Positions 3,196-45,700 of a stretch of DNA of 64,000 nucleotides are shown here, piece after piece. The notes beneath the pieces were generated by a model, which did not search any database, was not told the origin of the DNA, and worked only from the letters and a program-made list of their open reading frames with translations. The DNA is from a virus (lineage: Duplodnaviria; Caudoviricetes): positions 1-64,000 of the IMG/VR virus record IMGVR_UViG_3300028048_000059. One strand, given 5' to 3'. The first letter of the stretch is position 1. Each line of letters starts with the position of its first letter. The translations under genes and the position numbers were made by a program.

Positions 3196-3389
3196 GTTAG
3201 TTGCCTTTCTGGTTTGGAAGTGTTTTCCTTCACTTGTTGAGATAAGTATATCATATGGTGTATGTTTTGTCAAGTTAAGAATTTGTGACGCATAATTTCG
3301 CCGCAAGTTTATCCAACCATTATTTGCGGTTTGTCATTGTGGTATCATAATTGTGTGTTATACTATGCTTGAAAGCGAGGGGAACGAAG

Positions 3390-24911: not shown

Positions 24912-27495
24912 TAATGGCTTTTTACTTGATGGCATACCTATTGAAAAAGGTGTCGTTCTTACTAAGCAATTCTTGGATAATAACCAAGAATTGCTTACAA
25001 ATTATTTGAATTGTTGGATTCTGTACCCAGATTTATATTTAGATGCTATTCAGCCGCAAGAAGATCGCAAAAATTTTCATCTTTTCTTCTATCAACGTAT
25101 TGCGCTTCGTGCAAGCATGAGGTATAAATATCATTTTTGGACCGCTACACGTGCAACATCCAAATCTTTTACTGCTTATCTTGCGGCGGTTGTTCGTGCA
25201 GTTCTCTTACCGAACTCACAAATTTTCATTGCCTCTGACGTGAAAGGCACTGTTATTAAAATTGCAGATGCTAAATTTAATGAAATTTGGCGCCATTGGC
25301 CGATGCTACGTAATGAGCTTGCTACCCGTGCAGATGATGGACGTACTGGTGAAAAACGTAGTGGTAACTACTATGAACTTTATTTTAAAAATGGTAGCGC
25401 GATCACCGTTGTTTCAAAAGACACGAGCCGTGGTTTACGTGCCAATTTCGGCATTCTTGAAGAGGCCGCAACAATTGAAGAAGACGACTACAATGCTGTG
25501 CTATTGCCTCAGATGAACGTAGCAAGGCGTGAAGTCGATGGTTCTTTAAATCCAGAAGAACCTTCAAGCCCGCAAACCTTCATAACAACAGCAAGAGAAA
25601 AAACAGTTTTTATGTATTCTAAGTTGATAGAATGCGCAGTTAATGCGGTTTTGCGGCCGCAAGACAGCTTCGTATGGGGTTTAAGCTACGAAGTACCCCT
25701 TCATTATGGTTTAATTGACCGTCAAACCATTATGGACCAACGCTATTCTAAAACTATGAATGAAGAAATATTTGCCAGAGAGAATTTAAGTATATGGACT
25801 GGCAACAACGCAGAAGCATGGCTAGATTCTAAAAAATTAAGCAAGCGCCGAACTTTATTAAAGTGTGAACGAAAAGCGCAAGAAAATCCAACTAATCCAA
25901 ATACCTTCTATATAGTTAGTGCCGATATCGCTCGTTATTCTGCGAACACGGCTATAACTGTAATCAAGGTAATTCCTACTCAAAATTGTTTTAAAAAACG
26001 TGTTATTTATACGGAAGTAATACATGGCGCCAATTATATCACTGAGCAAGCGCCACGTTTAAAGAAATTGATTCAGCTCTATCAACCAAGGGAGGTTGTC
26101 ATTGACGGCAATGGGCGGAATGAAATCTGGCCCACCTGACAAGTAATTGTCTTGATTAAACTCTTTTAATTGCGGGAACATCCCAAGTGGACAATCCGCA
26201 GCCAAGCATAAAAATTATTTTAAGGAGAGAAATTTATGATGAAAATTATACCCCATAACTACGTTACAAGGTATGGATATCATTATTTTGCCACCGATGA
26301 TGGGCATATTTATTCAGAACACTTAAAAAGAAATATCAGTGAATATTATGATAAAGATGGATATAAAAAAGTTCGTTTATGCAACGGTACTGGCGAACGA
26401 AAAGTATTTTCTGTACATAGATTAATTTTAGAAACTTTTTGCCCTAATGAAAATAGCAATAACTTGCAAGTTAATCATAAAGATGGCGATAAAACCAATA
26501 ATGCTTTATCAAATTTAGAATGGGTTACTTGTAAAGAAAATATAAACCACGCTTATAATTTAGGTTTATATACTAACATTGGAGACAATAATAATGGTGA
26601 ACATAAATTAGTTACTTCACAAGTTTTAGAAATTATTCAATTGTTATTAGATCATGAAATGACTATACAAGAAATTGCTAATAAGTATTCAGTTAGTAAA
26701 CATGCAATTGAATCAATTAAATATAAAAAAACTTGGAAGCATCTTACTAAAAATATTAATTTTTATGAAGGTTCAACGACCAGTCAGAATGACGTAGATC
26801 GCAAGCAAATGGCGATCGAAATGGAGAGCTCCTCAATTGAGGATGATGAGATGGTCTGAACTATATGGTAACATATAGCTGGATAAAATCCGCATAAGAA
26901 CTTGCGATTCTTATGGAACATAATTACAGGAATTGGCCTGCTTGATGCCATGGCATTGCCTTCTTTTGATGCAAAAACTGGCGAGCAATTCCCCGCTTAC
27001 TATGTTTTTAACAATGAGCATCATTTGCCGCCAGAAAAGAAAACACCTAGCGAAGAACCTTGGCCAGAAATAAATGGTATCATTTATGACATTAAAGCGG
27101 GCGCATCTAATGATGATGAAATTCATTCGAATTTTTTTGCTCAAATTAATAATGGTACAGTTTCTTTCTTAGCGTCTGAGCGTGTTGTAAAGGATAAATT
27201 GTTAAAAACTAAAAAAGGGCAAGCGATGAGTTTCTATGATAGAAGGGTATTCCTTTTACCATATGAAATGACTTCTCGCCTGATGGATGAGTTAAATAAT
27301 TTAAAATTAAAACCTACTGGCGTGCAGAATCAATTTAAAGTAGAGCGCATTTCTCATTCTATTGAGAAAGACCGCTTCTCATCGCTGGAATACAATCTCT
27401 TCCGTGTAAAATATTATGAAGATAAAGCAACACGAAAAAATAAAAGTCGTGATTTTAATAAATACATATTTTTTAGTCCTAGAAAAAGGGGGTGA
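24895..27495 (+). CDS. terL: Terminase large subunit, spliced (24895..26116 + 26927..27495, ~596 aa)
   Basis: Walker A-like TRATSKS, SRGLR, Walker B ILEE, coupling motif ITT, nuclease SADIAR. The join reads IDGNG-PGIGLLD; C-terminal KDRFS. Confidence 0.9.
26117..26926 (+). mobile_element. Group I intron in terL
   Basis: P: AATTGCGGGAA; Q: AATCCGCAGCC; P7 GACCA/TGGTC; P1 and P10 pairing. Removal restores the reading frame. Confidence 0.85.
26236..26859 (+). CDS. Intron-encoded HNH homing endonuclease
   Basis: VHRLILETF...VNHKDGDKTNNALSNLEW, AAGGAG RBS. Confidence 0.9.
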   Translation: MMKIIPHNYVTRYGYHYFATDDGHIYSEHLKRNISEYYDKDGYKKVRLCNGTGERKVFSVHRLILETFCPNENSNNLQVNHKDGDKTNNALSNLEWVTCKENINHAYNLGLYTNIGDNNNGEHKLVTSQVLEIIQLLLDHEMTIQEIANKYSVSKHAIESIKYKKTWKHLTKNINFYEGSTTSQNDVDRKQMAIEMESSSIEDDEMV

Positions 27496-29054
27496 GCATT
27501 TTGGGAACACAGCGTGAAAAATATGATTTCTCGAACTTTAAGTTACGCGTGAATCGTGTGAAACGGGCTCCATTTAATATCACAGGTTACAATCGTTGGG
27601 GATACGATGGGGCAAAACGTTTCAGCGACGATTTTACCTTAGAAGAAATCCAACAAATCATTCGCTCTGGTGATGTTCAGGCTTACCGTGAATTATCGTT
27701 ATATTATTATCGTACTAATAGTGAGTATCGTAATAATATTGACTATTTGGCGGCCCTACCTTTATATGACACTGTTGTCATTCCAGTAATGGAAGAAGGG
27801 CGCGGTTCCGCTACACAAATTCGTAAAAATTTTGAGAAGGCTTGTGAATTTATTGAAAATTTAGATGTTCCAAATACATTTTCTCACATTACAAGAGAAT
27901 GGTTAAAAACAGGCATTTATTATGGTGTATTGCGCACAGATGGCGATTTGGTGGTTATTCAAGATTTGCCGTTAGAATATTGTCGCGTGCGTTTTAAGGA
28001 CATGCATAATTTAAATATTTTGGAATTTAATCTTACTTATTTTCTTAGGATTAGTGATGAAGAACTTCGTAGAGAGGCCGTAGAAAGCTTTCCAGAAATT
28101 GTACAAGAAGCATGGCATGAATATTATGATCTGCACACACGTATTGATACGTGGGTAATGCTGCCTGCCGGCTCTGGCGGCGTTAGCTTTTCTTTTGCAG
28201 ATGATCAGACGCCACTATTGCTAGCAAGTATTGAGAGCTTGAAAAAGCTAGATGATGCCGTTAAACGCGAAGAGAAACGCGATGAAAACGAATTATATAA
28301 ATTATTAATTCAAAAAATGCCAATAGATAAAAATGGTGAACTTGTTTTCCAACTTGAAGAAGTTGCAGATATTCACGCTTCTGTCGCAGAAATGCTAAGT
28401 GACACAGATACGGTTGATGTATTGACTACTTTTGGTGATACAAGTTTAGAGAGTTTACAGGACACTTCGGCCGCCTCACAATCTGCGGATCGTATTGAAA
28501 AATATCGTAAAAATACATTTGATGCGTTAGGCCGCAGTTCTTTGCTATTTAATGCAGAAGGTAGTTCTTCTCTTGCTTATTCTATTAAGAAAGATGAAGC
28601 ATTAATGACGGTATATTTAAATGCCTATGAGACTTGGATTAAGTATCATTTGAATGAAAAATTTGCGCGCAATGGATTAAGTTTTGACTTTGAGATTCTA
28701 CCAACAACAGTTTTTAATCGTCAAGATATACAAGCAACATATTTCCGTGGCGCTCAATATGGTTATTCAAAAATGTTTGCTGGCGTTGCTATTGGCATCA
28801 AACAGCGCGATCAATTATCGCTTATGGATTTTGAAAATGAGTTGTTACACATGTCTGAAAAGATGATTCCATTACAATCTTCTTATACAACATCTGGTGT
28901 TGCGGTTGCGCAAGAAGAAAAAAGTAATTCTACTACACAAAAAACCACAATCAGCACGCAGAGTAACGACTTAGATAATAAGGGGGGTCGTCCCGAACTT
29001 CCCGATGAACAAAAATCTGAAAAAACTCAGGCCAATATCGCGGCCGCGGGTTAA
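27492..29054 (+). CDS. Portal protein
   Basis: 520 aa directly after terL, C-terminal GGRP motif. Confidence 0.8.
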   Translation: MSILGTQREKYDFSNFKLRVNRVKRAPFNITGYNRWGYDGAKRFSDDFTLEEIQQIIRSGDVQAYRELSLYYYRTNSEYRNNIDYLAALPLYDTVVIPVMEEGRGSATQIRKNFEKACEFIENLDVPNTFSHITREWLKTGIYYGVLRTDGDLVVIQDLPLEYCRVRFKDMHNLNILEFNLTYFLRISDEELRREAVESFPEIVQEAWHEYYDLHTRIDTWVMLPAGSGGVSFSFADDQTPLLLASIESLKKLDDAVKREEKRDENELYKLLIQKMPIDKNGELVFQLEEVADIHASVAEMLSDTDTVDVLTTFGDTSLESLQDTSAASQSADRIEKYRKNTFDALGRSSLLFNAEGSSSLAYSIKKDEALMTVYLNAYETWIKYHLNEKFARNGLSFDFEILPTTVFNRQDIQATYFRGAQYGYSKMFAGVAIGIKQRDQLSLMDFENELLHMSEKMIPLQSSYTTSGVAVAQEEKSNSTTQKTTISTQSNDLDNKGGRPELPDEQKSEKTQANIAAAG

Positions 29055-29059
29055 GGAGA

Positions 29060-30313
29060 ATGAATATGGATAAAAATATACCTATTTATTTTGATAGTAT
29101 AATTATTGATTCTCCATTTCAAGAAATTTCTCAAGATACCCCAAACATTGGCCGCTTAAAGGTTAGGGTGTTTTCAAAATATGGAAACCGCAATGGTTCC
29201 TATATTACTGATGCCGTAGCAGATCAATTAATTCAATCTGCTATTGGCGGGAACACTCCCGTTGTTGGGTTCTTTGATCCTGAAACAAATTCATGGGCAT
29301 CTCATACTGGCCCTATGATTGCAAATGCTTATGGATATGTTGAGGATTTCTTAGGATGGCAATCATTTGATGATACAGATGGCGTAGCTCGTGACTATGC
29401 TGTTTTCTCAGTAGTGCTTTTTACAGATTATTTCGATGAAGCGCGCAAGATTCTTGGTCAAAACCAATCAATGGAATTAGACCCAGCGTCTATCACCGGC
29501 GAATGGGCAGATATCGAAAATCAACCATATTATGTCTACAAAACAGCTAAGATGCTAGGTTTTTGTGTAATCGGTGATCACGAGCCATGCTTTTCTGTGT
29601 CTTCATTCTTCGCGAAGAATGATGAAAATTATAATAATCAATATGAAAAATTTGCTTCTTTATTATCTGATTTAAAGGTTAAAGTAGAAGCAACTGAAAA
29701 AGATATGGGAGGAGAACATCCAATGGACGTATTTGAAAATCAAGTTGCCGTTGAAGAGATTCAAGAAGCTCCCGAAGTAGAAGTTAATGTTGTTGAAGAA
29801 ACAACCGCACCTGAAAATTTTGAGAAGGAAGAAGAACAAGTAGAGGTTACCGTAGAAGAAACAGAAGTAACCGAACCTACTGAATTCGAACTTCTACAAC
29901 AGCGTTTTGAAGAGCTTCAGGCTTCTTATGATGCATTACAGGAGCGTTTTGATCAGGTTTCTAATGAATTTTCTGCTTTTCAAACAAGCGCAAATGAAGA
30001 GTTGGAAACTTTACGCAATCAAAACACGGAATTACAAGCTTCTGTCCAAAATTATGAAGCCCAAGCAATAGAAATAGAAGAGAATCGCAAAAATATTTTG
30101 CTTGAAAAATATGAAAAGATGCTTGACGCGGAAGAAATTGCACCAATCCGTGAAGCGTCTAAGGACTATTCTTATGAAGAATTGGAGTCAAAGTTGGCTG
30201 TTATGTTTGTTAATGCTAAAATGAACGGCAGTGAAGAAGTGCAAAAAGTCCCACTACCTGAGCCACAAGAATCCCAATTCGCGTTACTTATGAAAAAATA
30301 TCGTAAAAACTAA
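29060..30313 (+). CDS. Prohead protease/scaffold
   Basis: GNRNGS, H, QSMEL, GFCVIG...PCF, followed by an acidic coiled coil. Position fits. Confidence 0.75.
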   Translation: MNMDKNIPIYFDSIIIDSPFQEISQDTPNIGRLKVRVFSKYGNRNGSYITDAVADQLIQSAIGGNTPVVGFFDPETNSWASHTGPMIANAYGYVEDFLGWQSFDDTDGVARDYAVFSVVLFTDYFDEARKILGQNQSMELDPASITGEWADIENQPYYVYKTAKMLGFCVIGDHEPCFSVSSFFAKNDENYNNQYEKFASLLSDLKVKVEATEKDMGGEHPMDVFENQVAVEEIQEAPEVEVNVVEETTAPENFEKEEEQVEVTVEETEVTEPTEFELLQQRFEELQASYDALQERFDQVSNEFSAFQTSANEELETLRNQNTELQASVQNYEAQAIEIEENRKNILLEKYEKMLDAEEIAPIREASKDYSYEELESKLAVMFVNAKMNGSEEVQKVPLPEPQESQFALLMKKYRKN

Positions 30314-30326
30314 GGGGGTATATGTT

Positions 30327-30935
30327 ATGGCTCTTACTAACTTTCCAAAAGAACAATATGCTAGCCTAGAACTCAATCAAGTTGCGTTCCCCCAGACTGG
30401 CATGGTAGTTTCTCAAGTACCACTAGGCACAGCGTTTACCAAGGACGCGCCCTGTGAGAATGGTATGTGGGTAGTCGCTGATAAGGCTGCTGGCGTTATT
30501 AATGCTCCTGCCGCTGCTACTGACAAACCAATTGGTATTGTTTATACCACTGAAAAAGAATATGATTATATGCACTATGGACTAAAAACCTTTGGCCGCA
30601 AGATTGCTGGCGACTATCCTCGTGTAGGTATTCTTGGTGTAGGTGACACTGTTACCACCAACTGCTTACAGTATGATGATAGCGTATTCCAAGCAGTTAC
30701 TACTACTGGTAGTGAAAAGACTTCTGCCGAAGTTCTAGATGCTTATCTAAGCGCTCTAGATGATACTAATAAGGCTTATGTTGTTATTAGCACCAAGAAT
30801 GGCGCCAAGCCTGGTGTTCCAGAGATCGTTAAGACTCTACCCAATGGTTATGCTGGCATTTATGGCCGCATTGTAAAATACTACACTGTACCTAACGGCG
30901 AAAAGGGCGTTAAGTATCAGATTATTAGTCTATAA
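30327..30935 (+). CDS. Putative head decoration/structural protein
   Basis: Lies between scaffold and capsid; CENGM motif. Confidence 0.55.
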   Translation: MALTNFPKEQYASLELNQVAFPQTGMVVSQVPLGTAFTKDAPCENGMWVVADKAAGVINAPAAATDKPIGIVYTTEKEYDYMHYGLKTFGRKIAGDYPRVGILGVGDTVTTNCLQYDDSVFQAVTTTGSEKTSAEVLDAYLSALDDTNKAYVVISTKNGAKPGVPEIVKTLPNGYAGIYGRIVKYYTVPNGEKGVKYQIISL

Positions 30936-30950
30936 TAGGAGGTGCGAACT

Positions 30951-32045
30951 ATGAATACTCTACAAGTTCTAATGAATGGTGTTTTCGGCCGCAAGGTTCC
31001 TGCTGAGTTCGCTGCCGAAAATTATGACTATGAGGCCGCTCTACATGATGAGCTAGCTAAGTTATTCTGCGACGAAAATGGTCGTTTTAATCGTTATAAG
31101 TTTGAGCGCAATAAGATTGACCTATTTGAGTTACTTTCTGAGAATCTAGAAGAGGTTCTTCCTCGTAGCATTCAAGGCGCTCTTGATATGTTCACTGAAA
31201 TCATGCGTGTGCCACAGGGCGCTCGTCCAGAGTTCCGTGTAACTCGCGGCAAGCAACGTGGTCGTCAGTTTGTAACTCGTGCCACCGAGTCCGGCAATTA
31301 TGAAACCTTCCGTCTAGACCGTGATCGTTTTGACGTTTTCATTCAGGCGATCGGCGGCGCTGGTCGTGTAGATTTCGAACGCTATCTTGATGGCGTAGAG
31401 TCTATTACTGACATTTATGAAGTTATCAACCAAGGCATGATTGACCGCATCTTTGAGATGGTTCAAGAGGCTCTACTTGCTACTTGGAATCTCGCGGGCC
31501 GTCCTGCTCGCAACAAGGTTGTTGCCAATACCTTTGATCCTGTTGAGATGCAAAAGCTCTGCAACACCGTTGCGGCTTATGGTTCTCCTGTAATTTATTG
31601 CTCTCCCGAGTTCGCTGCTGAAATGGCTAATGCGATTGTATATGTGCATACTCCTGCTAGTGGCGCTGCTACTACTAAGATTGCTATTGCTGATCAGGAT
31701 CTAGTTGACATCCGTGAGCGTGGCTATATCGGCAAGTTCCGTGGCGTACCAGTTGTTGTAATGCCTCAGTCCTTCACTGATGAGTTCAACACCAAGCTAG
31801 CCATGAACCCCTCTTTCGCTTATGTTATTCCTACTGGCCGTGAGAAGCTAATCAAGCTAGTATTTGAAGGCGCTCCTTATTTCCGTGAGTGGGATGACCA
31901 TGAGGGCGATAATTCTATTACACTACAAGCTTATGCTAAGGTTGGTCTAGCTATTGTTTCTACTCCCAACTATTGGGGCATCTACTACAACAGTGGTATC
32001 GATGCTGGCGGCTGGGAAGACTATAACGACGCGCTAGTTGACTAA
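30951..32045 (+). CDS. Major capsid protein
   Basis: ~364 aa, AGGAGG RBS, GYIGKFRGVPVV, strong codon bias, terminator follows. Confidence 0.85.
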   Translation: MNTLQVLMNGVFGRKVPAEFAAENYDYEAALHDELAKLFCDENGRFNRYKFERNKIDLFELLSENLEEVLPRSIQGALDMFTEIMRVPQGARPEFRVTRGKQRGRQFVTRATESGNYETFRLDRDRFDVFIQAIGGAGRVDFERYLDGVESITDIYEVINQGMIDRIFEMVQEALLATWNLAGRPARNKVVANTFDPVEMQKLCNTVAAYGSPVIYCSPEFAAEMANAIVYVHTPASGAATTKIAIADQDLVDIRERGYIGKFRGVPVVVMPQSFTDEFNTKLAMNPSFAYVIPTGREKLIKLVFEGAPYFREWDDHEGDNSITLQAYAKVGLAIVSTPNYWGIYYNSGIDAGGWEDYNDALVD

Positions 32046-32058
32046 TTGATATAGATTG

Positions 32059-32090
32059 AGAATGGGTGGTATACCCACCCATTCTTTTTT
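32059..32090 (+). terminator. Rho-independent terminator
   Basis: AGAATGGGTGG/CCACCCATTCT plus T run. Confidence 0.85.
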
Positions 32091-32110
32091 GGAGTTAAAG
32101 GAGGAATATT

Positions 32111-32551
32111 ATGAATAAGATTACAATGAAGAACGTAAGTTCGGCGACTGTCAGTGTTATTTCTGATAATTTTAGGCGTTCACTAGCGCCAGGCCGCGTA
32201 GTTCCAATTACGCGCGCTATTTATGACGATTTAATGTTTGATCCCGGTTTCGTTAAACTAGTTGAATCTCACTTTTTGAAGATTGATGGTGTTAGCGACG
32301 ATCAGGGTGTCATTCCTAATGAGCAAAACGTATATGATGTTGCCGCAATTCGTTCTATGTTAGAAAATAAAGATTATGCCGCTTTTACTAAATTCATTCC
32401 TCATGCTACTGCCGCTGAGAAAGACACTGTTATAAAGCTTGCGGTAGAAATGGGAATTACAGATGGCGGCTTCACCGCTCTTATTAAGAAATATTGTGGC
32501 GTAGATGTTATTTCTGCTATTAATCAAAAACATCTTGCCGAAGAAAAGTAA
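32111..32551 (+). CDS. Hypothetical protein (head module)
   Basis: AGGAGG RBS, position. Confidence 0.7.
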   Translation: MNKITMKNVSSATVSVISDNFRRSLAPGRVVPITRAIYDDLMFDPGFVKLVESHFLKIDGVSDDQGVIPNEQNVYDVAAIRSMLENKDYAAFTKFIPHATAAEKDTVIKLAVEMGITDGGFTALIKKYCGVDVISAINQKHLAEEK

Positions 32552-33033
32552 TGGCTACACCTTTTCTAAAAGTTTATGACGCCTTTTTAGGGCGTATTAC
32601 CGCGGACGAATGGTCGCTAGAAGAAGAACTAGCTATTGTAGAGCGGGATTGGCAAGAACTTTTAAAAATTGCGGTCTTTCGTTTTAAGTATCCGCGAGTA
32701 GATTTAACAATAGAAGAAGTAGAACCTCCTGAACATGGTCGATTAGGAATATATCAATTTGCCGCCGATTTGAATAATGAAGAAATTCAATTACTTGCTT
32801 TATACATGAAGCATGAGTGGGTAAAGAGATGTATTGCTAGTTGGGAAAACATTCGCCAACTTTATGCCGATAAAGATTTCTCACAAGCAAACCATTTAGA
32901 TAAATTAAATAAACTTGAAGCCGCGATTGAATTAGAAGTTCATCGTGCCGAAGGAATTTATGATAGATCAAGGGAAAAGCGGCCAGCAGATTTATTCAAA
33001 AAGCTCGCCGGAAAAAAGAACATTGTCGGATGA
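32551..33033 (+). CDS. Putative head-tail adaptor
   Basis: MATPF..VYDAFL..I N-terminus, DFSQANHL, position. Confidence 0.6.
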   Translation: MATPFLKVYDAFLGRITADEWSLEEELAIVERDWQELLKIAVFRFKYPRVDLTIEEVEPPEHGRLGIYQFAADLNNEEIQLLALYMKHEWVKRCIASWENIRQLYADKDFSQANHLDKLNKLEAAIELEVHRAEGIYDRSREKRPADLFKKLAGKKNIVG

Positions 33034-33295
33034 AACTTTTGACGGATATAAGAATAAATTAAAAGGCCGATTATACGGCTTACTTTGTGAGAAAGAAAAA
33101 AATGGCGATTGGGAAAAATTTCTAGATTCAATTATTATTGAATTATATGGTTTAGGACCGAATTCAATTAATTACTGGGCGCTGATGGGAAAAATACAGG
33201 CGTTACGCTTCTTATCTTATGATGCGTTTCGCCGTACCGTTTTTGAGAGTATTAATCTTGTCGGCGGTTTAGATAAAAACGATGCATTATCTTGA
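33023..33295 (+). CDS. Small hypothetical protein (start uncertain)
   Basis: Open frame overlapping both neighbours; TTG start proposed. Confidence 0.55.
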   Translation: MSDETFDGYKNKLKGRLYGLLCEKEKNGDWEKFLDSIIIELYGLGPNSINYWALMGKIQALRFLSYDAFRRTVFESINLVGGLDKNDALS

Positions 33296-35707
33296 TGTAT
33301 ATTGGTCTAGAATAAACCATTTAGGAGAGACTACTGCTGAACGTATTAAAAATGGTGGTATTCGTTCATTTGAAAAATGGATGGCTGAATCACCACATAC
33401 GGTTCGAGATTTATCTGTGGAAAGAGGTCTTTATTTTGATGGATTAATTCTCACAAATAAAGATAAAGAATATGAAAAAATTATGTTTTTAAATGTTGCA
33501 AATGATATTCCTATTCGCGTTGGGGATATTATGAATTGGGCTATTGAAGATGGCACCATTGAAAAATGGATTTTAATTCAAAAAGAGAAAAAAGTAAATG
33601 GAACATATCAAACTTTTTGGATTGTACGTTGCAATTATTTATTAAAATGGATTGATGAGGTTGGGCATTTGAAACAATCTTGGGCATATGTTGTTAGTTC
33701 TCTTGATTCAAAAATTAAGGGAAATTATCGAACTTGAATTTCAGGTTCCTTAACCAGTAATGGTTATGAAAAATGCTATTGAATTGCTGGGAAATTTTAA
33801 TACTCTTTTTACTACAACACGATCCCTGAGACGGGATGAATGTGATAGTTACGAAAGTAGAAAAAAATAAAAGAGTTGATATAATGCTGTAAAGCTAATA
33901 TATCATACAATAAATAATCAGCAGCTAAGCTTAAATAAAAAAGAAAGTTCAACGACTATCCTTTATGGAGTAGGGCGAGTAAGCTCGAAGCGGTAGCCCC
34001 CTGATTAGGGTGAAGATATAGTCTGAAAGGAGTAACAATGAAAGGTATTATTTATTGTGCATATAATAAAATAAACGGAAAAAGATATATTGGGCAAACA
34101 ATTAAACCTTTGGAGCAACGGATTAAATTACATTATTATAGTTCAAATTGTACTTTATTCCATCGTGCTTTAATGAAGTATGAAGAAAAAGATTGGGAAT
34201 GGACAATCATTGATACTGGTGAAGCTGGTACAGAATTATCACAGAAAGAGCAATATTGGATTAATTATTATGATACTTATAACAATCCTTCTAAGGGATA
34301 CAATCTGACGAAAGGCGGCGAAGGCAGCCTTGGTGTTGTTGTAAGTGTTGAACATAAACAAAGAACACGTAACGCTATGTTAACATTAAAAATGAATCAT
34401 TATAAAGAAAAGGTTGAATCTATCAGCAAACCAATAAAATGTATAGAAACAAATGAAGTGTTTTCTTCTATTTCAGAAGCCGCTCGTGCAAAAAATGTTT
34501 CTAATTCTACAATTGCTAAGGCCGCACATTCTGAAAATGGAATGGCTGTTGGTTGCCATTGGAAATTTTTAACTGGTATTGAAAAATTAAAAGTATTAAA
34601 AAATGCTATTTATTGTGTAGAATTAGATCGATTTTATGAAAGTTTTAAAGAGGCTAGAAAGGTTGACAGATTTCATGAAGGAAATTTACGTCTGGCTATG
34701 ATCCAAGGCGACCCGTATGAAGGGAAAATATATGCTGGGTATACTTTTTATTGGGTTAATCCTGATTTACATAGTGGAATTCACTAATAACTCCACAACC
34801 AAACAAATATGCCGAAATCCTTATGCCACGTTATCCAATCAATCGTGCGACCAACTTTATCGTAGAAGACGAATCTTGGTCGGTAATTGAATATGACCAT
34901 ACCAGTGTGCCTGGTGTTATTTACTTATCTCTTACCGAAGGTAAAATTAATTCTATTTATGATGATATCATTAATGATATTGCCGATACTGATCGTTTAG
35001 CGCAATATTCATTAAGTGTGCCAGAAAAAGTGCAAACATTTAAACCCGGTGATAAAATTGAGCCAAAATTTACTTTAATGAAAAATGGGATGCCATGTGG
35101 CGCAGCATATAAAATTTTGTCTGCGCCCGAAAGTAAGGATAAGACCAAAGAAAAGGATGGCCAACTTACTGTCGCGCCAGATGCTACTGGCGAGATAACC
35201 ATTATTATACAATTAGTTGATTACCCTGAAATTCAAAAAATGATGACTATTCAAGTTAGTAATGTAGATCAAGAATTTTCTGTATATATTGATGGTAAAT
35301 CAACTATTTCCTTAGATAGGCATGCTACCTATCAATTGCAGACCACTGACGAAAATTACAGTGGCGCTAATATTTTCCAACTCTACAAATTATTAGTAGT
35401 TGAAGAATCTGATATAGAACAATATGATAATGATGATTATGTTTTATTTAATCATCCACGCATTGAAGGCGCAAAACTTGCTTTACACAAAAGTGCTGAT
35501 TGGGCCAATTATAGTGCGGCCGCAACTATAACCGAGTTTGCGAAGCAGTATGAAAAAGAGTCAGTTCTTGCTGTGATAAAGGAAAATAATGTTGTGCAAG
35601 CAAATAATAGGAATAAATTAGGCTTTACAATGTTAGCAAATATTTATGAGTATGACGGACAATTTAATATTACTTTTAAGATAATAGAAATTGTTCCATT
35701 ATGGTAG
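33282..35707 (+). CDS. Neck/head-closure-like protein, spliced (33282..33734 + 34775..35707, ~461 aa)
   Basis: The join GNYRT-WNSLITPQPN is in frame. RCNYLLKW motif, position. Confidence 0.7.
33735..34774 (+). mobile_element. Group I intron
   Basis: P1 GAACU|UGA..UCAGGUUC with U-G pair, 9-bp P10, GAATTGCTGGGAA, AATCAGCAGC, P7 GACTA/TAGTC, terminal G. Confidence 0.9.
34038..34787 (+). CDS. Intron-encoded GIY-YIG homing endonuclease (NUMOD1-like repeats)
   Basis: GIIYCAYNKINGKRYIGQT, EQYWI, GYN, FSSISEAAR. Confidence 0.9.
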   Translation: MKGIIYCAYNKINGKRYIGQTIKPLEQRIKLHYYSSNCTLFHRALMKYEEKDWEWTIIDTGEAGTELSQKEQYWINYYDTYNNPSKGYNLTKGGEGSLGVVVSVEHKQRTRNAMLTLKMNHYKEKVESISKPIKCIETNEVFSSISEAARAKNVSNSTIAKAAHSENGMAVGCHWKFLTGIEKLKVLKNAIYCVELDRFYESFKEARKVDRFHEGNLRLAMIQGDPYEGKIYAGYTFYWVNPDLHSGIH

Positions 35708-35711
35708 GTGA

Positions 35712-36233
35712 GTGTATATGGATTTAGAAATGACTCAAAGACGCTTTTCTGTCATGGGTGAAAATGCTTTTATTATTGCTAACAGAATAATGTCTAATCA
35801 AAGAGTTTGTCGTTTGTTAAAATATCAAACACGTAATCCTTTTGCTTTGAAAGAAAACGGAAAAGATCAACCTGACGTGGATGGTGCAGAGCTTATTAAT
35901 AAACAAATATTAATTGTTCCAAAAATTTATGATGATTCAACTGAAAAAATGTCGTATGTTACGGCTATTTTTGATGATTTTGTAGTGAATCAATTAAATC
36001 CAGAATTTAAAATTTCAACAGTGCGTTTTGATGTTGTTTGTCCTTATGATGAATGGATTTTGAATGATAAATCATTGCGGCCATATTTGATTATGGAAGA
36101 AATTGATAGAATGTTTAACCAAAAACCACTACGTGGCATTGGTAATTTACAATTCCATCGAGCAGATAATTTGGCTTTGTCTCCATGGATAGGCGGTTAT
36201 TCCATGAGGTATAAGATTAATGAATTTAACTGA
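35712..36233 (+). CDS. Putative tail completion/terminator protein
   Basis: Position before the tail tube; LRPY.IM.EID...N...GIG. Confidence 0.55.
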   Translation: MYMDLEMTQRRFSVMGENAFIIANRIMSNQRVCRLLKYQTRNPFALKENGKDQPDVDGAELINKQILIVPKIYDDSTEKMSYVTAIFDDFVVNQLNPEFKISTVRFDVVCPYDEWILNDKSLRPYLIMEEIDRMFNQKPLRGIGNLQFHRADNLALSPWIGGYSMRYKINEFN

Positions 36234-36996
36234 TACAGAAGTTTTAAAATTTCAGCGCGGCTCGCCAGTATTATTGGACGATATTTGCGCTATCTATCCA
36301 CTTACATTAGGAGAAATCGCTGATGTTGGATATGATAAATTTCAGTTGTATTTAGGAATTTTAACTAGTGAAAAACCGACCGATATAAAAGGAGAGCATG
36401 AGCTAGTAAAGTTGTTAAATGATTTATCAGATTTTCAATATTTATTAATGATGACGGCAATCGATAAGCAATCGAATGAAACATTTCGGGATGCTTTTCA
36501 ATTGTTTTGCAAAGAGGACGTTTTTTTCTCGCTTGACCCTCCGCAAATTGTGGTGGGGCCGCCGGAAGAAAAACGAATTTTAGATGAGCAACATTTTTAC
36601 GATTTGCAACACATTTTAAAACGCATGTATTGGATTGAGCAAGACGGCGAAGAGATTGTGATCAATGCGGACGATTCTCCTGCTGTAAGAAATTTAAAAT
36701 TACAGATGAAAAAAAATAGAGAAAGAGTGCGCAAAGCAAAAGCAAATAGGTCACGTCAAGAAGGCCATGATTTAAAGTTTTCTGATTTAATTGGTAGTTT
36801 AACTATAAATAATTGTGGGTTAAACATGGAAAATATTTGGAATATTACATACTATGCTTTTCACGATCAATTAAAGAGAATGGGTTGGCGTGATCAGTTT
36901 AATATAAATCAATCCGCGGCCCTTGCGGGCGCAAAATTAAAGAAGTCACAATTGAAGCATTGGATGCGTACAATTGGTGATTCTGAAAAATCATGA
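36220..36996 (+). CDS. Hypothetical tail-module protein
   Basis: Translationally coupled, C-terminal LAGAK...HW. Confidence 0.6.
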   Translation: MNLTDTEVLKFQRGSPVLLDDICAIYPLTLGEIADVGYDKFQLYLGILTSEKPTDIKGEHELVKLLNDLSDFQYLLMMTAIDKQSNETFRDAFQLFCKEDVFFSLDPPQIVVGPPEEKRILDEQHFYDLQHILKRMYWIEQDGEEIVINADDSPAVRNLKLQMKKNRERVRKAKANRSRQEGHDLKFSDLIGSLTINNCGLNMENIWNITYYAFHDQLKRMGWRDQFNINQSAALAGAKLKKSQLKHWMRTIGDSEKS

Positions 36997-37016
36997 TTTT
37001 TTAGGAGGTAACTCTT

Positions 37017-38796
37017 ATGGCTGTTAATATTTTTGATAAGTACGGTATGTAGATGCTGCATTAAAAAGTAATTTTTAATGAAAATCTCGTGAATTGCTGG
37101 AAAGTCCTAAAGCCTATTTACTACAACATGGCGCGAAAGCGCGAGTGTGAATGTTTAAAAAATAATAGGATGTAACAATGGATAATCAGCAGCCAAGCTA
37201 AGGAGGAATAATAATGTGGAAGACAATTCCCGTTGATGATAATTATGAAGCGAGCAATGATGGACAAATTAGAGAAAAAAGTAATAAAAAAATAGTGTCA
37301 CAATGGAAAGACAAAGACGGATATTTAATTGCAACTTTATCTCAAAAATTATATCGAGTACATCGTTTAATTGCTTTAACTTTTATTAGTAACCCGAATA
37401 ATTTACCGGTGGTTAATCATAAAAATTTTAATAAAAGTGACAATCATGTTGCTAATCTTGAATGGGTAACCTATTCTGAAAATAGCAAACATAGTTTTAC
37501 AGGAAATCATAGAGACGATAGTGTGCAAGTTTGGGTGCAAAAAGTGCAACCACTTGCGGCGGAAGCGTCAAAAACCAAAGTCGCTCAATATGATTTAAAT
37601 GGAACCTTGCTGAACGTTTTCAACAGCCAGCGTGAGGCAAGTGAAAAAACAGGTGTGTGTAGAAGTTCTATCACTCGATGCGTCACTGGACATAGAAAAA
37701 CTGCTGGTGGATATAAATGGGAATACTACTTAGAAGGTTCAACGACTAAGAATGAAGAAAATCCCACTTCATCTGTGCGAGACTCCGAGAAATCGGAAGA
37801 AGATATAGTCTGAACTTATGTGAAAGCATAAGAAGCCATGATGGGTATGGCTGTAACATATTGATCAAAGAGGTTGCCAATGTATATTTTGAAGCGTTAG
37901 CGGATGACCCCGCGGCTAATATTTATAAAGGCGACATCGTACTATTTTTGGATACTCTAAAAGTATCTACTATTGAAACAACCGCTGAGCAAACCGATGC
38001 TACTGGCGGCTGGGGCAACCCCAAACTAATCACTTGGGACTATGGTAAGGAAATTACTCTAACTCTAGAAGATGCTCTAATGTCCTTAGAATCTTTACGT
38101 TTCATGATGGGCGGCGCGATTAAGCGTTCCAAACCTGCGTCTTCTGATTCACAGACTACTATTCCAGCGACTAAGGTGCTTGTCCATCGCACTGAGGAAG
38201 TTGTAGCTGGCGATAATGGCGTCATACCACTACCAGTAGATCATATTACAAAAGCTACTTTATATCCAGAAGCTCTTACTGGTCACCCAATTCGTTTTAT
38301 CAACTATGGCGGCGGCACAGATAGCGCAACTGCTGGTACACGTACACAAGTGACTAGTGGTAAAATGGAAGCTCCCGCAGCTCTTAAGTTTAAGAATACT
38401 GCTATGGGTGTTGCGGAGGAAACATTAGCGACAAAGGGCGACCATATTCGTATTTTCTGGGTTGAAGAAGTTGATGAAGCTGATTCCGCTATTGAAGTAA
38501 CCATTTCTCCCAGCACCTTCCCTGGCACTTATCGTGTTGTTGGTGATACCTTCATGCGCTCTCAGAAGACCGGTAAGGACGAAGCCTTCCAGTTCGTTAT
38601 TGGCAAGGCCAAGGTTTCCTCTGAGGTTACTCTAACCCTAGAAGCCGAAGGCGATCCTACCACTTTCGAAATGACGCTAACCGTTCTTCGTGATACCAAC
38701 GAAGCTGGCGAAGCTGAAATGATGAAGCTAATCCGTTACGGCGATGCTGCCGCAGATGGTGGCACCACTGGTGATGACATCGGTTCTTTAACTTAA
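37017..38796 (+). CDS. Major tail tube protein, spliced (37017..37046 + 37864..38796, ~320 aa)
   Basis: AGGAGG RBS. The join MAVNIFDKYG-IKEVANV matches the paralog's YFGIKELYEV. EGDP motif. Confidence 0.85.
37047..37863 (+). mobile_element. Group I intron in the tail tube gene
   Basis: P1 CGGU|AU..AUGCUG with U-G pair, GAATTGCTGGAAA, AATCAGCAGCC, P7 GACTA/TAGTC, terminal G. Confidence 0.9.
37214..37813 (+). CDS. Intron-encoded NUMOD4-HNH-NUMOD1 homing endonuclease
   Basis: WKTIP..YEASNDG, VHRLIA, VNHKNFNKSDNHVANLEW, TAGGYKW. Confidence 0.9.
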   Translation: MWKTIPVDDNYEASNDGQIREKSNKKIVSQWKDKDGYLIATLSQKLYRVHRLIALTFISNPNNLPVVNHKNFNKSDNHVANLEWVTYSENSKHSFTGNHRDDSVQVWVQKVQPLAAEASKTKVAQYDLNGTLLNVFNSQREASEKTGVCRSSITRCVTGHRKTAGGYKWEYYLEGSTTKNEENPTSSVRDSEKSEEDIV

Positions 38797-38805
38797 TATA
38801 ACATT

Positions 38806-39690
38806 ATGATAGATCAATATTTCGGAATAAAAGAGCTTTACGAAGTAGCTCTAAAAGCAAAAACTCCGATGCAATTCGGAGAACGTTATTTAGAAGCTGG
38901 CGAACCTGTTCTATATTTTGAGAATGTTGAGATATCAACCTTAACTGAGCGTTCCTCCCCCATAATGGCTCGTGGCGGTTGGTCCAATTTGCCACGAGTT
39001 ATTTGGGAGGACCGCTCTGAGGTCCAATTTTCTCTTACAGAAGGGGTTCTCTCTTCTATTAGTATGGGAATTCTACTTAGTGCCGCCATGCGGCCGCAAC
39101 CAGAGGAACCATTGCTCGTTCCTAAGAAAGAAGGGCCTTATTCACTTTTTACAGTGGGGCAAGAAAATCGTTTATATTTAGAGCATTGGCCTGTGGACTA
39201 TCCTGTACGGAAAACATTTATTTATGAATATTCGCGTGACGTTGCGCAAAAGAAATATTACGGTAAAAAAATATTCGGCGTTCCTGACCCTTGGGATGAC
39301 GATAAAGAGCGTCCTTGTATTGCAGTTTATGAAGACAAGGCATGCACAATACCGGCAGACGCAAGTAAGAAATATATTGTAGATTATTACTATCAATATA
39401 CAGATGAAGCTTTGATTTATACAATCAATAAAGAGCGGTTTAATGGATTATTCACTCTTGAGGGTAAGTTTTACTCCAAGGATGAAAACGAAGGCTTGAA
39501 TTATACTAATTTAATTTATATGCCTCGCGTGAGAGTCGTAAGTGATATAAACTTACGCTTGGGAGAAAGGGCTGATCCAACAACGTCTGTTTTTCATATT
39601 ATTGGATTGCCAGAAACAATATCCAATAATAGTAAGGGTACAATATTGGAGATAACGCGCTTAAATGATGACATTGATGCGCAAGAGTAA
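38806..39690 (+). CDS. Tail tube protein paralog
   Basis: GIKE, ARGGWSN...W and ADPT motifs shared with the upstream tail tube. Confidence 0.7.
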   Translation: MIDQYFGIKELYEVALKAKTPMQFGERYLEAGEPVLYFENVEISTLTERSSPIMARGGWSNLPRVIWEDRSEVQFSLTEGVLSSISMGILLSAAMRPQPEEPLLVPKKEGPYSLFTVGQENRLYLEHWPVDYPVRKTFIYEYSRDVAQKKYYGKKIFGVPDPWDDDKERPCIAVYEDKACTIPADASKKYIVDYYYQYTDEALIYTINKERFNGLFTLEGKFYSKDENEGLNYTNLIYMPRVRVVSDINLRLGERADPTTSVFHIIGLPETISNNSKGTILEITRLNDDIDAQE

Positions 39691-39727
39691 GCCACTTCCT
39701 TCAACGAGGAAGTGGCTTTATTTTTTT
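39689..39727 (+). terminator. Rho-independent terminator
   Basis: AAGCCACTTCCT/AGGAAGTGGCTT plus T run. Confidence 0.85.
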
Positions 39728-39746
39728 GGGTTAAAGGAGTGATATT

Positions 39747-42700
39747 ATGGCAGGTTCTAGTAGTGGAACTACTGTAACAATTGATTTAGGTGTACAACTT
39801 AGATTGATTGAATCATCTTTACGAGATGCACAAAATGCATTGAAGATGTTAAAACCCGATAGTAAGAGTTTTAAAGAGTTACAAAGGATTTTAGCTGTAA
39901 TTACACAGCAAATGAATAAAATTGAAGCGCAATCGAAATCACCGATTAGTTCGACGAAACAGTTAACGCAAATTGATAGGGAGTTTGCGAAAATTAATGA
40001 ATCAATCGCAAGTTTTCAGACTGCATTAAGTCATGTTGATTTTTCTGATTTGGAATTGGATCCGGGGACTGCAAAGCGATTTCAAGAGTTGACTGAACAA
40101 ATTGCGGCTTCACAGAAAAAATATGAAGATTTAAAACAAGCACAAGCAGAAGCATTAGGTAAAAATGCAGATGTACAGGCATTGGTGCCAGACTCAAAAG
40201 TTGTGCAAAAAGGGTATGATGCATTAGCACAAGCAATTGAAGATGGTGCTACCAAAACAGAAGCAGAATTAAGAGCGGCTGAAAAAGCATTAAACACATC
40301 AAAAAAGAAAATAGACATAGGAAAAAGAATTTATTCTATCACCGGCAATGATGGGAAAAATCGGCTACCGCAAGTAGAGAAACAAAAAATAACAGATGCT
40401 ATACCAGAACTTGATCGTTTTATAAGTACAGATAAAAATGGGGCGATGAGGTTTCGGAGTGGTACGCCATACGGTGGTGGAAAGAGCTTTGGCCCTGGTG
40501 AAGCAAAGCAACAGCTTATACAATATTTAAAGGAATTATATTCTTTAAATGACGCGGAAGTTACAAAATTAACAGAAGAAACTGCAAAAAGCACAAGCAC
40601 ACAATTTTTAGCAAAACTGGAAGAAGAAATCGGCAAAGGCGTAAAATCTGAAATTTTTGGGCGTTCTTTACGAGGATTTAAAAAAGCTTCTTCTGATATT
40701 GGGCAGCAAACAACTGATTATGAAGAAGCAAAAAGTAGAAATGAGCAAGCTCAACGTGCAAGAGATGCTTTAAATACTTCTGGTTCAATTATTGATGCTA
40801 GTAGTGAAACAACGCGTGAAGAAATAGAACATCTTAAAATAGAGATAGAGGATTTAAAAGCCAAATTAACACAAGCAGCACAAGCTAATACGCAAATGCA
40901 AAATAGCTTGAATGATATGGGTGACGCCGCGAAAAAAGGGCAACAAGACCTTGAAAAAACTAATAATGAATTAGAGCGTACAAAAACCGTCGCGTCTGCC
41001 TTTGACAGGATTAAACAAGGCATTATCAATTTCACTGGTTTCCACCAAGTAATGCGTATGGTAGGTTCTGCTGTCCGCGAAGCAATGAATCATATAAAGC
41101 AACTTGACTCAACTATGAATGGTATTGCTATTGTTACTAATATGACGACGGCGGACCTGTGGGATCAGGTTGGAGTATATAGCGATATTGCTCGTCAATA
41201 TGGCGTTAGTATTCAAGGTGCTTATGAAGTTTCTAAAATTTACTATCAGGCAGGTTATGAAACTAATGAAGTAATGACCTTGATGAACGAAACATTAAAG
41301 CTATCTAAAATTTCTGGCCTAGATTATGCAACAACAACCGACTACATGATGACCGCAATGCGCGGCTTCAAGTTAGAAATGGAAGATGCGTCACACGTAG
41401 TTGACGTTTATAGCGGTTTGGCCGCCAATACTGCTGTATCACAGAAAGAATTGGCAGAGGCTATGACACGTACTGCATCTTCTATGGAATCTGTTGGTGC
41501 AACATTTGAAGAAACATCCGCTATGATTGCTACCATGGTAGCTGTTACTCGTGAGTCTGCTAGTAACATTGGTAGCGCGATGAAGAGTATAGGTAGTAGG
41601 TTTGGTGAATTAACAAAAGACCCAACCGCATTGTTAGATGCGGAAGGCGAAGCAATGAGCTTCAACAAAGTTGACAAAGCATTACGTTCTGTTGGTATTA
41701 CGTTGCAAACAACAGATCACCAATTCCGTGACTTTACTGATGTAATTTTAGAGTTGGCTGATAAGTGGGATACATTGGATTCTGCTCAACAGCGTTATAT
41801 AGCGACTCAATTCGCAGGAAATCGTTTGGTATTGCTGGCGTTTTCAAGAGCTGCGTAAAAACTCAAAATAAAACAACGTGAATTGCGGGGACATCCTTAG
41901 AGTCTTTTTAACTAAACATTCATAGTAATATAGAATGCGGCTTTCAGTAATGATGAAAGGTATGGTAAAATCAAAAAGAATTGGATAATCCGCAAGCAAG
42001 CATCCCAATATTTGACAAGATAGAATTTTTATGTTATAATAAAAGAAAAAGGTTGAATTTTATGTTTAAAAAAATTATTTTAGATGGAGAAACCACACGA
42101 TGGTCAGTTGATGAAAGTGGCCGCGTTAGGAATGATGAAACAGGTCATTTTTTAACTGGTACGATTTTACATAGCTATCGTTATATTAATTTTCGATGGA
42201 ACGGTAAACAGAAGAATAAGTCAGTTCATCGTTTAGTGGCAGAAGCATTTTTGCCCAATCCAGAAAATTTGCCTTATGTTCATCATAAAGATGGAAATAG
42301 GTTAAATAATAATTTGGAAAATTTGGAATGGGTTACGGAGCAAGATAACCGTTTAGAAGCTATAATGCCGCAAGGATATAAAAAATATGATGGTACTAAG
42401 ATCGAAGGCGAGCAATGGCGCTATTTTAGAGATAGCGTTTATCAAGTATCTGATTACGGGCGTGTTAAAAACACAAAAACTGGAAAAATTTTAAAAGGCA
42501 CTGCCAGTGATTGTGGTTATATTCGAGTAGATTTACAATTAGCTGGACAAAAGCGTCGTAAATTTTTAGTTCATCAATTAGTCTATGAGTGTTTTGTTTC
42601 TCCTGAATTTGATGTTATTAATCATATAGATGGTAATAAAAAAAATAATAAAGTAAGTAATTTAGAGAGTGTATCTCATAAAGAAAATTTACAAAAAGCC

Positions 42701-45700
42701 GCGAACGAAACTAATGCATGGCATTTTAGGAAAGTTGCACAATATGATTTAGAAGGCAATTATATTCGAACGTTTTTAAATGCCTCTGATGCCGGTAGGG
42801 CCATGGGTATCTTACCTAGTAGCATGAGAAATTGTATTCGTTTGCGTGGTGGAAAACATAAAAATTTTATTTTTAAATATATTGATGAGGATGAAGCTTC
42901 ATCGACCATCTCGGAAGAGAGTAGGGTGAATAGCCCGAAGTGCGTTGCCCACACTAGTGGTGAAGATATGGTCAAAACTGAATGAGAAATCTTCAGATAC
43001 AAAAATAGCGTGCTATTATAGCACGCTTTTTGTATGCCTTTTTATAAAGGTAGAATTACAGCAATCTCGTTTCTTAGCTCTCGTATCCAATGGAGATCTA
43101 TTGCGTGAAAATCTACGTGTCGCAGAAACTAGCGATGATGTAGGTACAATTCAAGCATTGAAAGCATTGGATTCATTGGAATCGAAGTTAGAGCAAGTTC
43201 GAGTTAGTTATCAACAATTCTATACGTCGATGGGTATTGAGAGCGTATGGAAAGGATTCTTAGATGGCGTTCGACGGGTTATTGATAATTTAAATAAATT
43301 ACCTAAGTTATTTGGTAAATTACCAGTTAATGCAGTCGTTATGATTGCTAATTTGGTTAAAGTTATTAGTCATGGTTTACTAAGTGGGTTAAATAAAATT
43401 GCACAAAATGTTCAAAGTATTATTCAACGTATTAATAAAAACTCCAAGACAGAAGCCGATCAAGGCGGTACGCAGGTTGGAAAAACATGGGTAGATAAAA
43501 TTGTTGATTCAATTACACAGGGGCAAAGTAAGGTTGAACAAGCGGCTCGCGAAACAGTTCAAAAGGCAAATAAAGCGGCGGAAGAAGCTGCGCAAGAAGT
43601 CACGAATGTACAAAAATCAAAGACTAGCAAAGATATTGCGAAGGATGGCCTTAAAGATAACGGCATAGCCGGTATTACTATACCAAAAGGGCAGGCAGCA
43701 GCTGATAAAGCACAATTTAATCGTGATTTATATAATGCATTAGTTGATACATCAAATCCAGAGCAAACTGCGGCTACGTTAGACCCAATTCTTGAAGGCG
43801 TTAATAACGGTACTATAAGTTATAAACAAGCTTTATTAGATGCATCCGCGGCTGTCGCAAAAAATACAAATGAAGCCAAAGGGCTCGGCGACACCATGGA
43901 TTTAGTGGGAAAAAATACTGATAAATTTAAAACAAGCGCAGGCAATTCTGTTGGTGTTGTAGATTCTTTAGTTAAAGAAACCAGTAAAATGGAAACAACA
44001 ACAAAAACTTCTGCTAAGATATGGGAATCTTTTAAATCTGGAGGAGCGTGGAACAAAGCCGCTGTTGGTATTGGAACTGCGATGCAGGCCGCGGCTATGT
44101 TAATTGACACAAGTTCGCGTGCTGGTGAAGTTGCATCTGGGAGCTTTACTACGCTAGGTAGCGCAGTATCAGGTATTGCTGCCGGTGTACGTGTGTTCTC
44201 TGGTGATTTAAGTGCATTACCGCAATTATTATCTAGTGCTGTTTCTCTTTTTAGTGGTATAGGTTTAATAGTTGAAACTGATGCTGAAAAAGTAGAACGT
44301 TTAACAAAAGAAGCTGAAAAATTATCCAATGAAGCGTTGGTTAAGAAAAATGAATATAATACGCTAGATCAGAGTATTAAAAAGTTAGAAGAATTAGAAG
44401 AAAAAAGATATGATAGTGCAGAAGCTGCCGAGGAATATCAAACTGCTGTTGATGAGCTAGCAAAGCAATATCCAGAATTAATTACTGGAATTGATGAGTT
44501 GGGAAATGTTACTATTGAAACTGCGAACATCGAATATGAATTGGAAAAAGCTCGTGCCGCGGCAGCAGAGGCAACATATAATGCGGCCCAAGCTGAACGA
44601 GAAAAAGCTATCGCAGAACGAGATAGTGCTTTAAATGCTTTAACAGGGAAAAAAGAACAAACTTCATATGCGCACAGTATGAATCCAACTGATGGGAGAA
44701 AAGATAATACAAAACGCTTGACGGAGCAAGCATGGAATGAAATTATTGGGGATTATACTGGCAAAACAGATCTTTCTGGATTATACAACACAGATCAGAA
44801 TGGCTTTACAGAATGGATTACTACAGCTGATGGTTTTACCGAGAAGCTATTAAGAGAGATTCTTGAAGGCGCGGCAAACGCCAATTTTGTGGATACGAAT
44901 ACTGGATTTACAATAGTAGCTGGTGAGCCAAACGAAGATAAGAAGGAAATATCTATAAATGAAATTTTGTCTCAATATTTTGATGAATCTGGCGAATTGA
45001 CAGATACAGGTTTAATGTCAAAAATTGATAAAGAAATAGAAGATTTAAATCATGATATTGAAGCAAAAAAGTTTGATGGCGATGAAGGTACTCAAGAATA
45101 TATAAAAAGATCCAAAGCAATTATTGATTTAATTACAGCTAACGGTTTACAGGGATACTATGAGAATTTTTTAGAAAATACGACAGGTGTCACTGAGGCA
45201 GCTAGTGAGTTAGAACGCTCTCGTCGAGTATTGTTATCCACTTCAAAAATAACCATCGATGCTGCGGTTAAAACATATGCTGGCGGTCAAACAGAATTTT
45301 TAGAATCATTAGGTAATTCTAACGCACTTTTAAATCAATATTTATTTGATAAAGCAAATGAACTTGATGCTTATGATTTAGAAAATGATCCAGATGCAAT
45401 TGAAAAGTTTAAGAATTCTGATGATTTTGCAGAAGGTATTGAGGCTTACAAGGCTGAATTTGAAGCATTGTCACCATCCGACACTAAAAAATTCTTAGAC
45501 ATGTGGAAGAATCGCCAAAATTATTCTGAGCAAGATTGGATGGAAGTTTTTGATTTTGACGGCGCATCTGTAATTTGGCAAAGTATTCAAGGATATTATA
45601 GTGATCAAGCTATTGGTTATAGAGATCAATTAGAGCGTTTAAAAAAGCAAATTGATCGTTTGCCAAAAGAAAGCACTTCCGATACATTATTTTCAAATCT

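Follow-up and report, generated by a model that had tools for sequence, protein, structure and literature searches.

Two group I introns in the terminase and tape measure genes of a large phage appear to end in A rather than G

The stretch of DNA analysed here (the window) covers positions 1–64,000 of the IMG/VR record IMGVR_UViG_3300028048_000059 (157,489 bp; CheckV completeness 91%), which comes from a large, siphovirus-like phage. Two genes in the window, the terminase gene terL and the gene for the tape measure protein (TMP), each carry an insertion, and comparison with intron-less alleles suggests that both insertions are probably ordinary group I ribozyme introns of the phage type, each ending in A rather than G. 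An initial annotation of the window had proposed the same ends, and had gone on to assign the two introns to a non-canonical subgroup in which the terminal A is tied to a change in helix P7. The data support the terminal A for both introns, on the basis of exon comparison and P9.0 pairing and, for terL only, of tail alignment. They do not support the link to P7. Coordinates are those of the window and all features lie on the + strand.

Exon junctions were placed by comparison with intron-less alleles. The product of terL exon 1 is 68–83% identical to 62 related TerL proteins in IMG/VR; 59 of these loci span the insertion site and 57 of the 59 are intron-less there. All 57 read VIDGNG-x-GIGL(L/M)DA: a single codon separates GNG from GIGL, and it is CCN (Pro) in 56 relatives and GCA (Ala) in the other. 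The spacing is also kept in four more distant TerL homologues, which read GNG-[L/A]G-[I/V/R]GL. In the window, the translation of exon 1 (24895–26116) ends ...VIDGNG and the exon closes with C26116, the base that opens the Pro codon. Exon 2 (26927–27495) starts CA GGA AUU GGC, completing Pro and continuing GIGLLDA. Only C26116 joined to C26927 yields CCA. The intron between them (26117–26926, 810 nt) starts GGAAUG and ends AUAAUUA, so that its last base (omega) is A26926.

The same approach was used for TMP, with 10 close intron-less relatives and five distant homologues. The close relatives all read AGNR-Q-QSRF, and the distant homologues keep AG-xx-Q-xxx-F (Psychrobacillus phage Perkons reads QQSRFL). 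In the window, exon 1 (39747–41825) ends ...GCA GGA AAU CGU with U41825 at position -1, and a Pfam PhageMin_Tail match (E 3e-34) ends where the exon ends. Exon 2 (43059–54542) starts CAG CAA UCU CGU UUC (QQSRF). Only U41825 joined to C43059 gives the reading of the relatives with a U-G pair in P1. The intron (41826–43058, 1233 nt) starts UUGGUA and ends GAAUUA, with A43058 as omega. Judged by this comparison, the insertions relative to the intron-less alleles are exactly 26117–26926 and 41826–43058, both ending AAUUA. These junctions cannot be slid because the flanking bases differ (C against A and G against C in terL; U against A and U against C in TMP), and exact removal of both insertions restores the conserved Pro-Gly in TerL and Gln-Gln in TMP. 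The junction readings GNG-PGIG and AGNR-QQSRF, predicted by the initial annotation, are thus those found in the intron-less relatives.

The conventional alternative is that both introns end at the G of AAUUACAG (G26929 and G43061). The spliced junctions would then be ...AAUGGGC/GAAUUGG in terL and ...AAUCGU/CAAUCUCG in TMP, and each protein would be one residue shorter (TerL ...GNG-R-IGLLDA; TMP ...NR-QSRF). A terminal G is near-universal in group I introns, the guanosine pocket is unchanged here, the octamer AAUUACAG is common to both introns and the reading frame would be kept in both genes. Against this, ending at G would delete a Gly that is kept in the 57 close and four distant TerLs, beside the conserved VIDGNG, would shorten a spacing that is kept in 15 of 15 TMP homologues, and would still leave C at position -1 of terL. 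We therefore consider this alternative unlikely.

The canonical pairs of splice sites in terL were enumerated by hand. U26112 or G26113 combined with A26928 or G26929 would leave TerL two residues short (GNGIGL), and the reading becomes GNGRIGL for C26116 with G26929, GNGRRIGL for A26119 with G26929 and GNGRNEIIGL for U26126 with G26930. All are ruled out by the 57 intron-less relatives. Likewise, the TMP homologues rule out U41825 with G43061 (NRQSRF) and G41828 with G43061 (NRLQSRF).

As a control, the same script was applied to 13 other terL introns of the relatives, located at four other sites, and 12 of them admit a canonical solution with U before the intron and G at its end. The 13th (L064:1783-2999; site D, near residue 84) follows a C and has G as its last base; the alternative with U before it and U at its end breaks P9.0, so C at -1 recurs in this phage group. 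The window itself provides a further control in the group I intron of the tail-tube gene (37046–37863). Its junction, placed from intron-less relatives that read MAVNIFDKYG/IKEVANV, has U37045 at -1 and G37863 as omega, confirming the omega-G that the initial annotation had given it. Exon 1 of this gene has only 10 codons (MAVNIFDKYG; 36994–37045), placing the intron almost at the gene start. Finally, an intron in L094 (and its identical copies) seemed to combine a terminal A with the P7 strand UGGUC, and the capsid exon reading resolved it to U at -1 and a terminal G. The method of mapping therefore does not create A endings.

The predicted structure of the introns points to the same 3' ends. 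In this intron family, P9.0 is formed by positions 3 and 4 of J7/9 and the two bases preceding the last intron base; it covaries (AA/UU, AU/AU, AU/GU and CU/AG) and both of its pairs are formed in nine of the ten exon-mapped canonical introns. In terL, the 3' strand of P7 (UGGUC, 26852–26856) is followed by J7/9 UGAAC (26857–26861), in which A26859 is paired with U26925 and A26860 with U26924. In TMP, the corresponding strand (UGGUC, 42969–42973) is followed by AAAAC (42974–42978), in which A42976 and A42977 pair with U43057 and U43056. A third intron with a terminal A was found at the same terL site in a related phage (L055). With A as the last base all three introns form both P9.0 pairs, and with the G of CAG as the last base, as the conventional ends require, all three form neither. 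The P9.0/P9/P9.2 model is 88% paired, compared with 21–49% for slid controls; none of 500 shuffles reaches 88%, and 10 pairs are changed on both sides.

P10 gives a similar result. The internal guide of the terL intron (26126–26134) consists of UCUG (26126–26129), which pairs with CAGG of exon 2 (26927–26930) to form P10, and GCCCA (26130–26134), which pairs with the P1 5' strand UGGGC of exon 1 (26112–26116). At the 5' splice site this places C26116 opposite G26130, a Watson-Crick pair. The guide of the TMP intron (41831–41843) consists of AUUGCUG (41831–41837), which pairs with CAGCAAU of exon 2 (43059–43065), and GCGUUU (41838–41843), which pairs with AAUCGU of exon 1; here the 5' splice site has the canonical type of wobble, U41825-G41838. 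P10 is thus 4 bp long in terL and 7 bp long in TMP, and is contiguous with P1 in both. It abuts the P1 guide and begins at the first base of exon 2 (+1), as in the sibling intron L066, only if exon 2 starts CAG. The initial annotation had drawn these helices and both AAUUA ends (at 26926 and 43058), and every one of them is found where it had placed them. It was also right that P10 of TMP can stack on the P1 U-G pair only if exon 2 starts at C43059, and that terL has C-G in place of U-G at its 5' site. With the conventional ends, P10 is lost in terL and lies 3 nt away from P1 in TMP. In both introns, therefore, the modelled P9.0 and P10 agree on a 3' splice site directly after the A.

For terL, this conclusion is supported by alignment with the sibling introns. 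Using MAFFT and a covariance model, the terminal A falls in the same column as the terminal G of the siblings without gaps (nine of the ten sibling rows reach the last column, and the row for the intron at 37046 in the window ended short of it; the 3' domain of TMP was excluded as too divergent). The tail of the terL intron is GGAACAUAAUUA and that of the siblings GGAAGAUAAUUG. Ending at the G of AAUUACAG would lengthen the 3' tail to 14 nt, compared with 10–12 nt in the siblings.

Several features point to the insertions being group I introns of the mobile type. They share an architecture with extra P7.1/P7.2 and P9.x hairpins and an HNH gene looped out of P6. In terL, the P6 stem was read by eye as CAUAAAAAUUA/UAAUUUUUAUG, and the open reading frame (ORF) looped out of it (26236–26859) encodes an HNH homing endonuclease of 207 aa (Pfam HNH_3, E 3.2e-10), the 3' end of which overlaps P7, P3', P8 and P7'. 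The 5' strand of P7 is GACCA (26778–26782), with G26778 as the guanosine-binding G. In TMP, the 5' strand of P7 is also GACCA (42904–42908) and the ORF (42062–42985) encodes an HNH homing endonuclease of 307 aa with two HNH_3 stretches, NUMOD4 and NUMOD1 in Pfam. Both endonuclease ORFs are intact, and 57 of the 59 terL relatives that span the site and 10 of the 10 close TMP relatives are intron-less, as expected of mobile introns. The P9 region of the TMP intron also contains a terminator-like hairpin with a U run behind it (AUAGCGUGCUAUUAUAGCACGCUUUUU; 42995–43031), about 30 nt before the 3' splice site.

A scan with the Rfam group I model (RF00028) at the gathering threshold gave no match in the window; endonuclease ORFs split the intron cores, and the model was therefore run in E-value mode. 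It matches several places in the record, and one of them (33725–34030) is above the cut-off. The terL intron is matched in two halves (26087–26360 and 26685–26878) scoring 20 and 29.3 bits, under the 50-bit cut-off, and the tail-tube intron likewise in two (37036–37272 and 37610–37832; 24.9 and 28.6 bits), because each intron carries an endonuclease ORF. Among related introns, the 5' half of the one in L055 scores 58.1 bits and siblings that have no ORF score 90–96 bits.

The intron in L055, which comes from a different sample, lies at the same terL site with identical ends, ...aaugggc/GGAAU...CAAUUA/cagg.... Compared with the terL intron of the window it shows about six compensatory pair changes, read by eye (P5, P7, P8 and P9 have a single change apiece and P9.2 has two), and the L055 guide is CCUG where that of the window is UCUG, turning the fourth P10 pair (+4) from G-U into G-C. 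The endonucleases also differ: that of the window is an HNH protein encoded in L6, and that of L055 is a LAGLIDADG_2 protein encoded after the 5' strand of P7 (L055:4576-5286). Both ORFs pass through P8 and P7' and stop in J7/9 (the UGA in GUCUGAAC). C at -1, the terminal A and the P9.0 bases are kept in both introns. The helices have changed by compensatory substitutions while the ends stayed constant, which indicates that selection has kept a working ribozyme for some evolutionary time and that this is no recent lesion.

This bears on the idea that the introns are decaying, with the terminal A and C(-1) disabling them, so that the phage would need a protein helper or would itself be defective. 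Both changes weaken splicing in model ribozymes, and the genome is a 91% complete metagenome assembly of unknown viability. On the other hand, terL and the tape measure gene are essential, the core elements and both exon frames are all intact, a second phage has the same ends despite the compensatory changes in its helices, and natural terminal-A introns splice in vivo. Decay therefore seems improbable. Since the sequence is a metagenome-assembled contig, an error of sequencing or assembly at the last intron base could also be envisaged, but the same base is present in an independent sample and assembly (L055, which is identical to L083 and L084) and A is found at two separate introns of the genome. 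Moreover, G in place of A would leave the exon mapping unchanged. We regard such an error as extremely improbable.

The proposed link between the terminal A and P7 did not survive comparison with related phages. The motifs themselves are as the initial annotation gave them: GACCA/UGGUC in the terL and TMP introns, and GACUA/UAGUC in the introns at 33725 and 37046. However, L055 has the same ends as terL together with the canonical GACUA/UAGUC. Additionally, a pattern scan found UGGUC in the same sequence context at 21 loci, where at least seven distinct introns form both P9.0 pairs and appear to have G as their last base (the ends of these IMG/VR introns were set by model alignment and P9.0). 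The covariation seen in four introns of one genome thus vanished once relatives were examined. Nor do the introns form a non-canonical subgroup, as the terL intron belongs to an ordinary family that otherwise consists of introns ending in G.

The changed pair corresponds to U267-A308 of Tetrahymena. The guanosine-binding sandwich consists of C262-G312, G264-C311, A265-U310 and C266-G309 (PMC9943679); U267-A308 is absent from this list, which places the changed pair just outside the sandwich. The G-C pair that binds guanosine is intact in all three terminal-A introns (CGAC.../...GUC is retained), and J6/7 and the A preceding P7' are identical in terminal-A and terminal-G introns. We looked in J6/7, P7 and J8/7 for a core difference common to the three terminal-A introns and absent from their siblings and found none. 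These data give no grounds for proposing a cofactor in place of guanosine, such as ATP.

Taken together, the data suggest the following mechanism. In the first step, free guanosine would bind the unchanged P7 G-C pair (G26778-C26856 in terL and G42904-C42973 in TMP). Cleavage would come directly after the base that P1 holds: in terL this is C26116, opposite G26130, and in TMP it is U41825, opposite G41838. The C at -1 in terL follows from the insertion point, which lies between the first and second bases of a conserved Pro codon. In the second step, the 3' site would be set by the two A-U pairs of P9.0 before the last base, together with P10 running from +1 of exon 2 and stacked on P1. A26926 or A43058 would thereby be placed in the guanosine site and be tolerated there, probably with slower splicing, as in other natural introns with a terminal A. 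The Watson-Crick C-G pair at +1 of exon 2, present in both genes, may offset the weak binding of A (two independent sites). The predicted ligated junctions are ...GGCAAUGGGC/CAGGAAUUGG for terL and ...GGAAAUCGU/CAGCAAUCUCG for TMP, and the P7 change from U-A to C-G would be an unrelated, neutral variant. In a stronger form of this proposal, the terL intron would still splice accurately in spite of lacking both hallmark nucleotides, the terminal G and the U that normally forms the wobble pair at the 5' site; its guanosine pocket would be unaltered and its 3' site chosen purely by P9.0 and the P1-stacked P10. We consider this form possible but rather doubtful.

A number of observations weigh against ends in A. 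Judging from work on Tetrahymena, an A at omega should strongly slow exon ligation, and the pair that binds guanosine has not changed here. Both second exons start CAG, placing a G 3 nt downstream whose use would cost only one codon. An exact search of metagenome contigs for any spliced terL junction, with 0–8 free bases between the flanks, found none. The TMP intron is poorly recognised as group I: its Rfam match is weak (11 bits, in the P4 region), and its core rests mainly on motifs read directly (AAUUGCGGGG, AAUCCGCAAGC, CGACCA and GAAGAUAUGGUC), with P3, P4, P6, P7, P7.1/7.2 and P8 assigned by eye. Finally, only three such introns were found, at two independent sites, making them rare in the collections searched.

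Among the closest known counterparts of the terL intron are the sibling terL introns of related IMG/VR phages (at site A, L049, L052, L054, L055, L059, L060, L064 and L071; also L066/L067 and L068/L069). These have the same P7'-P9-P9.1-P9.2-tail arrangement, a near-identical tail (GGAAGAUAAUUG), P9.0, and a guide with P10 adjoining P1. They differ in that the intron follows a U and closes with a G, and their P10 usually begins at +2 of exon 2, leaving one guide base unpaired.

Introns ending in A have been met in other systems. The 23S rRNA intron Cbu.L1917 of Coxiella burnetii, the subject of work by Raghavan and colleagues in 2007, is reportedly self-splicing, is said in the title of that work to be one that 'lacks the canonical omegaG', and is said to end in A. 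It differs from the phage introns in interrupting an rRNA gene and is reportedly assigned to subgroup IB2 with a LAGLIDADG gene. In the hexacoral mitochondrial intron ND5-717 (Stichodactyla haddoni; corallimorphs) the last base is A, and 'perfectly ligated' exons nevertheless occur in vivo (PMC8146996, PMC6545197). ND5-717 resembles the introns described here as a natural group I intron that interrupts a protein-coding gene. In contrast, it is mitochondrial and inherited strictly vertically, and carries OxPhos genes in P8 and no homing endonuclease; the phage introns are of the mobile type, carry HNH or LAGLIDADG genes and come from another structural family, and their terminal A is deduced from intron-less alleles and structure. 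C at -1 also has a precedent. One report describes a type of bacterial tRNA group I intron with this base (Williams 2020, bioRxiv 10.1101/2020.01.27.920355). C replaces the U of the U-G wobble there as it does in the terL intron and probably in that at L064 site D, the difference being that the hosts are tRNA genes. The phage introns are a new case of a rare, already known kind with a terminal A. We know of no published terminal-A intron from a phage, and to our knowledge these are the first in phage structural genes.

Megablast of the window against GenBank phages found no close relatives, and the closest GenBank phages, Geobacillus virus E3 and Enterococcus phage H1 among them, share about 36% identity in TerL. 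Searches of sequence collections for further introns of the terL-site or TMP type returned only the L055 contig again, or nothing. The terL gene of this clade is an intron hot spot, with five distinct insertion sites (near residues 84, 228, 297, 343 and 408) and up to two introns in a single gene (L055 and L064). Three of the close TMP relatives (L074, L076 and L080) have in-frame TAG codons (around 3210–3230 of each locus) where the others have CAA or CAG (Gln), as in AT*FAGNR and NR*QSRF, and from these sequences some phages of the clade seem to read TAG as Gln. Phage Phass-1, a distantly related match, carries the classification 'code 15 clade'.

If both introns end as proposed, the terminal-A trait would range beyond organelle and bacterial rRNA introns and include mobile introns in the protein-coding genes of phages. 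An annotation rule that demands U before the intron and G at its end would mis-join both of these essential genes, dropping a conserved Gly from the terminase or a conserved Gln from the tape measure protein. The terminal A might itself be selected, by slowing exon ligation or by blocking intron circularisation or reverse splicing in late structural genes. The terL intron would be a natural example of an unchanged guanosine pocket combined with replacement of both conserved splice-site nucleotides; if it does splice accurately, these two hallmarks would be dispensable together. With its close siblings that end in G, it would form a convenient natural pair for gauging how far P9.0 and P10 can stand in for recognition of the terminal G.

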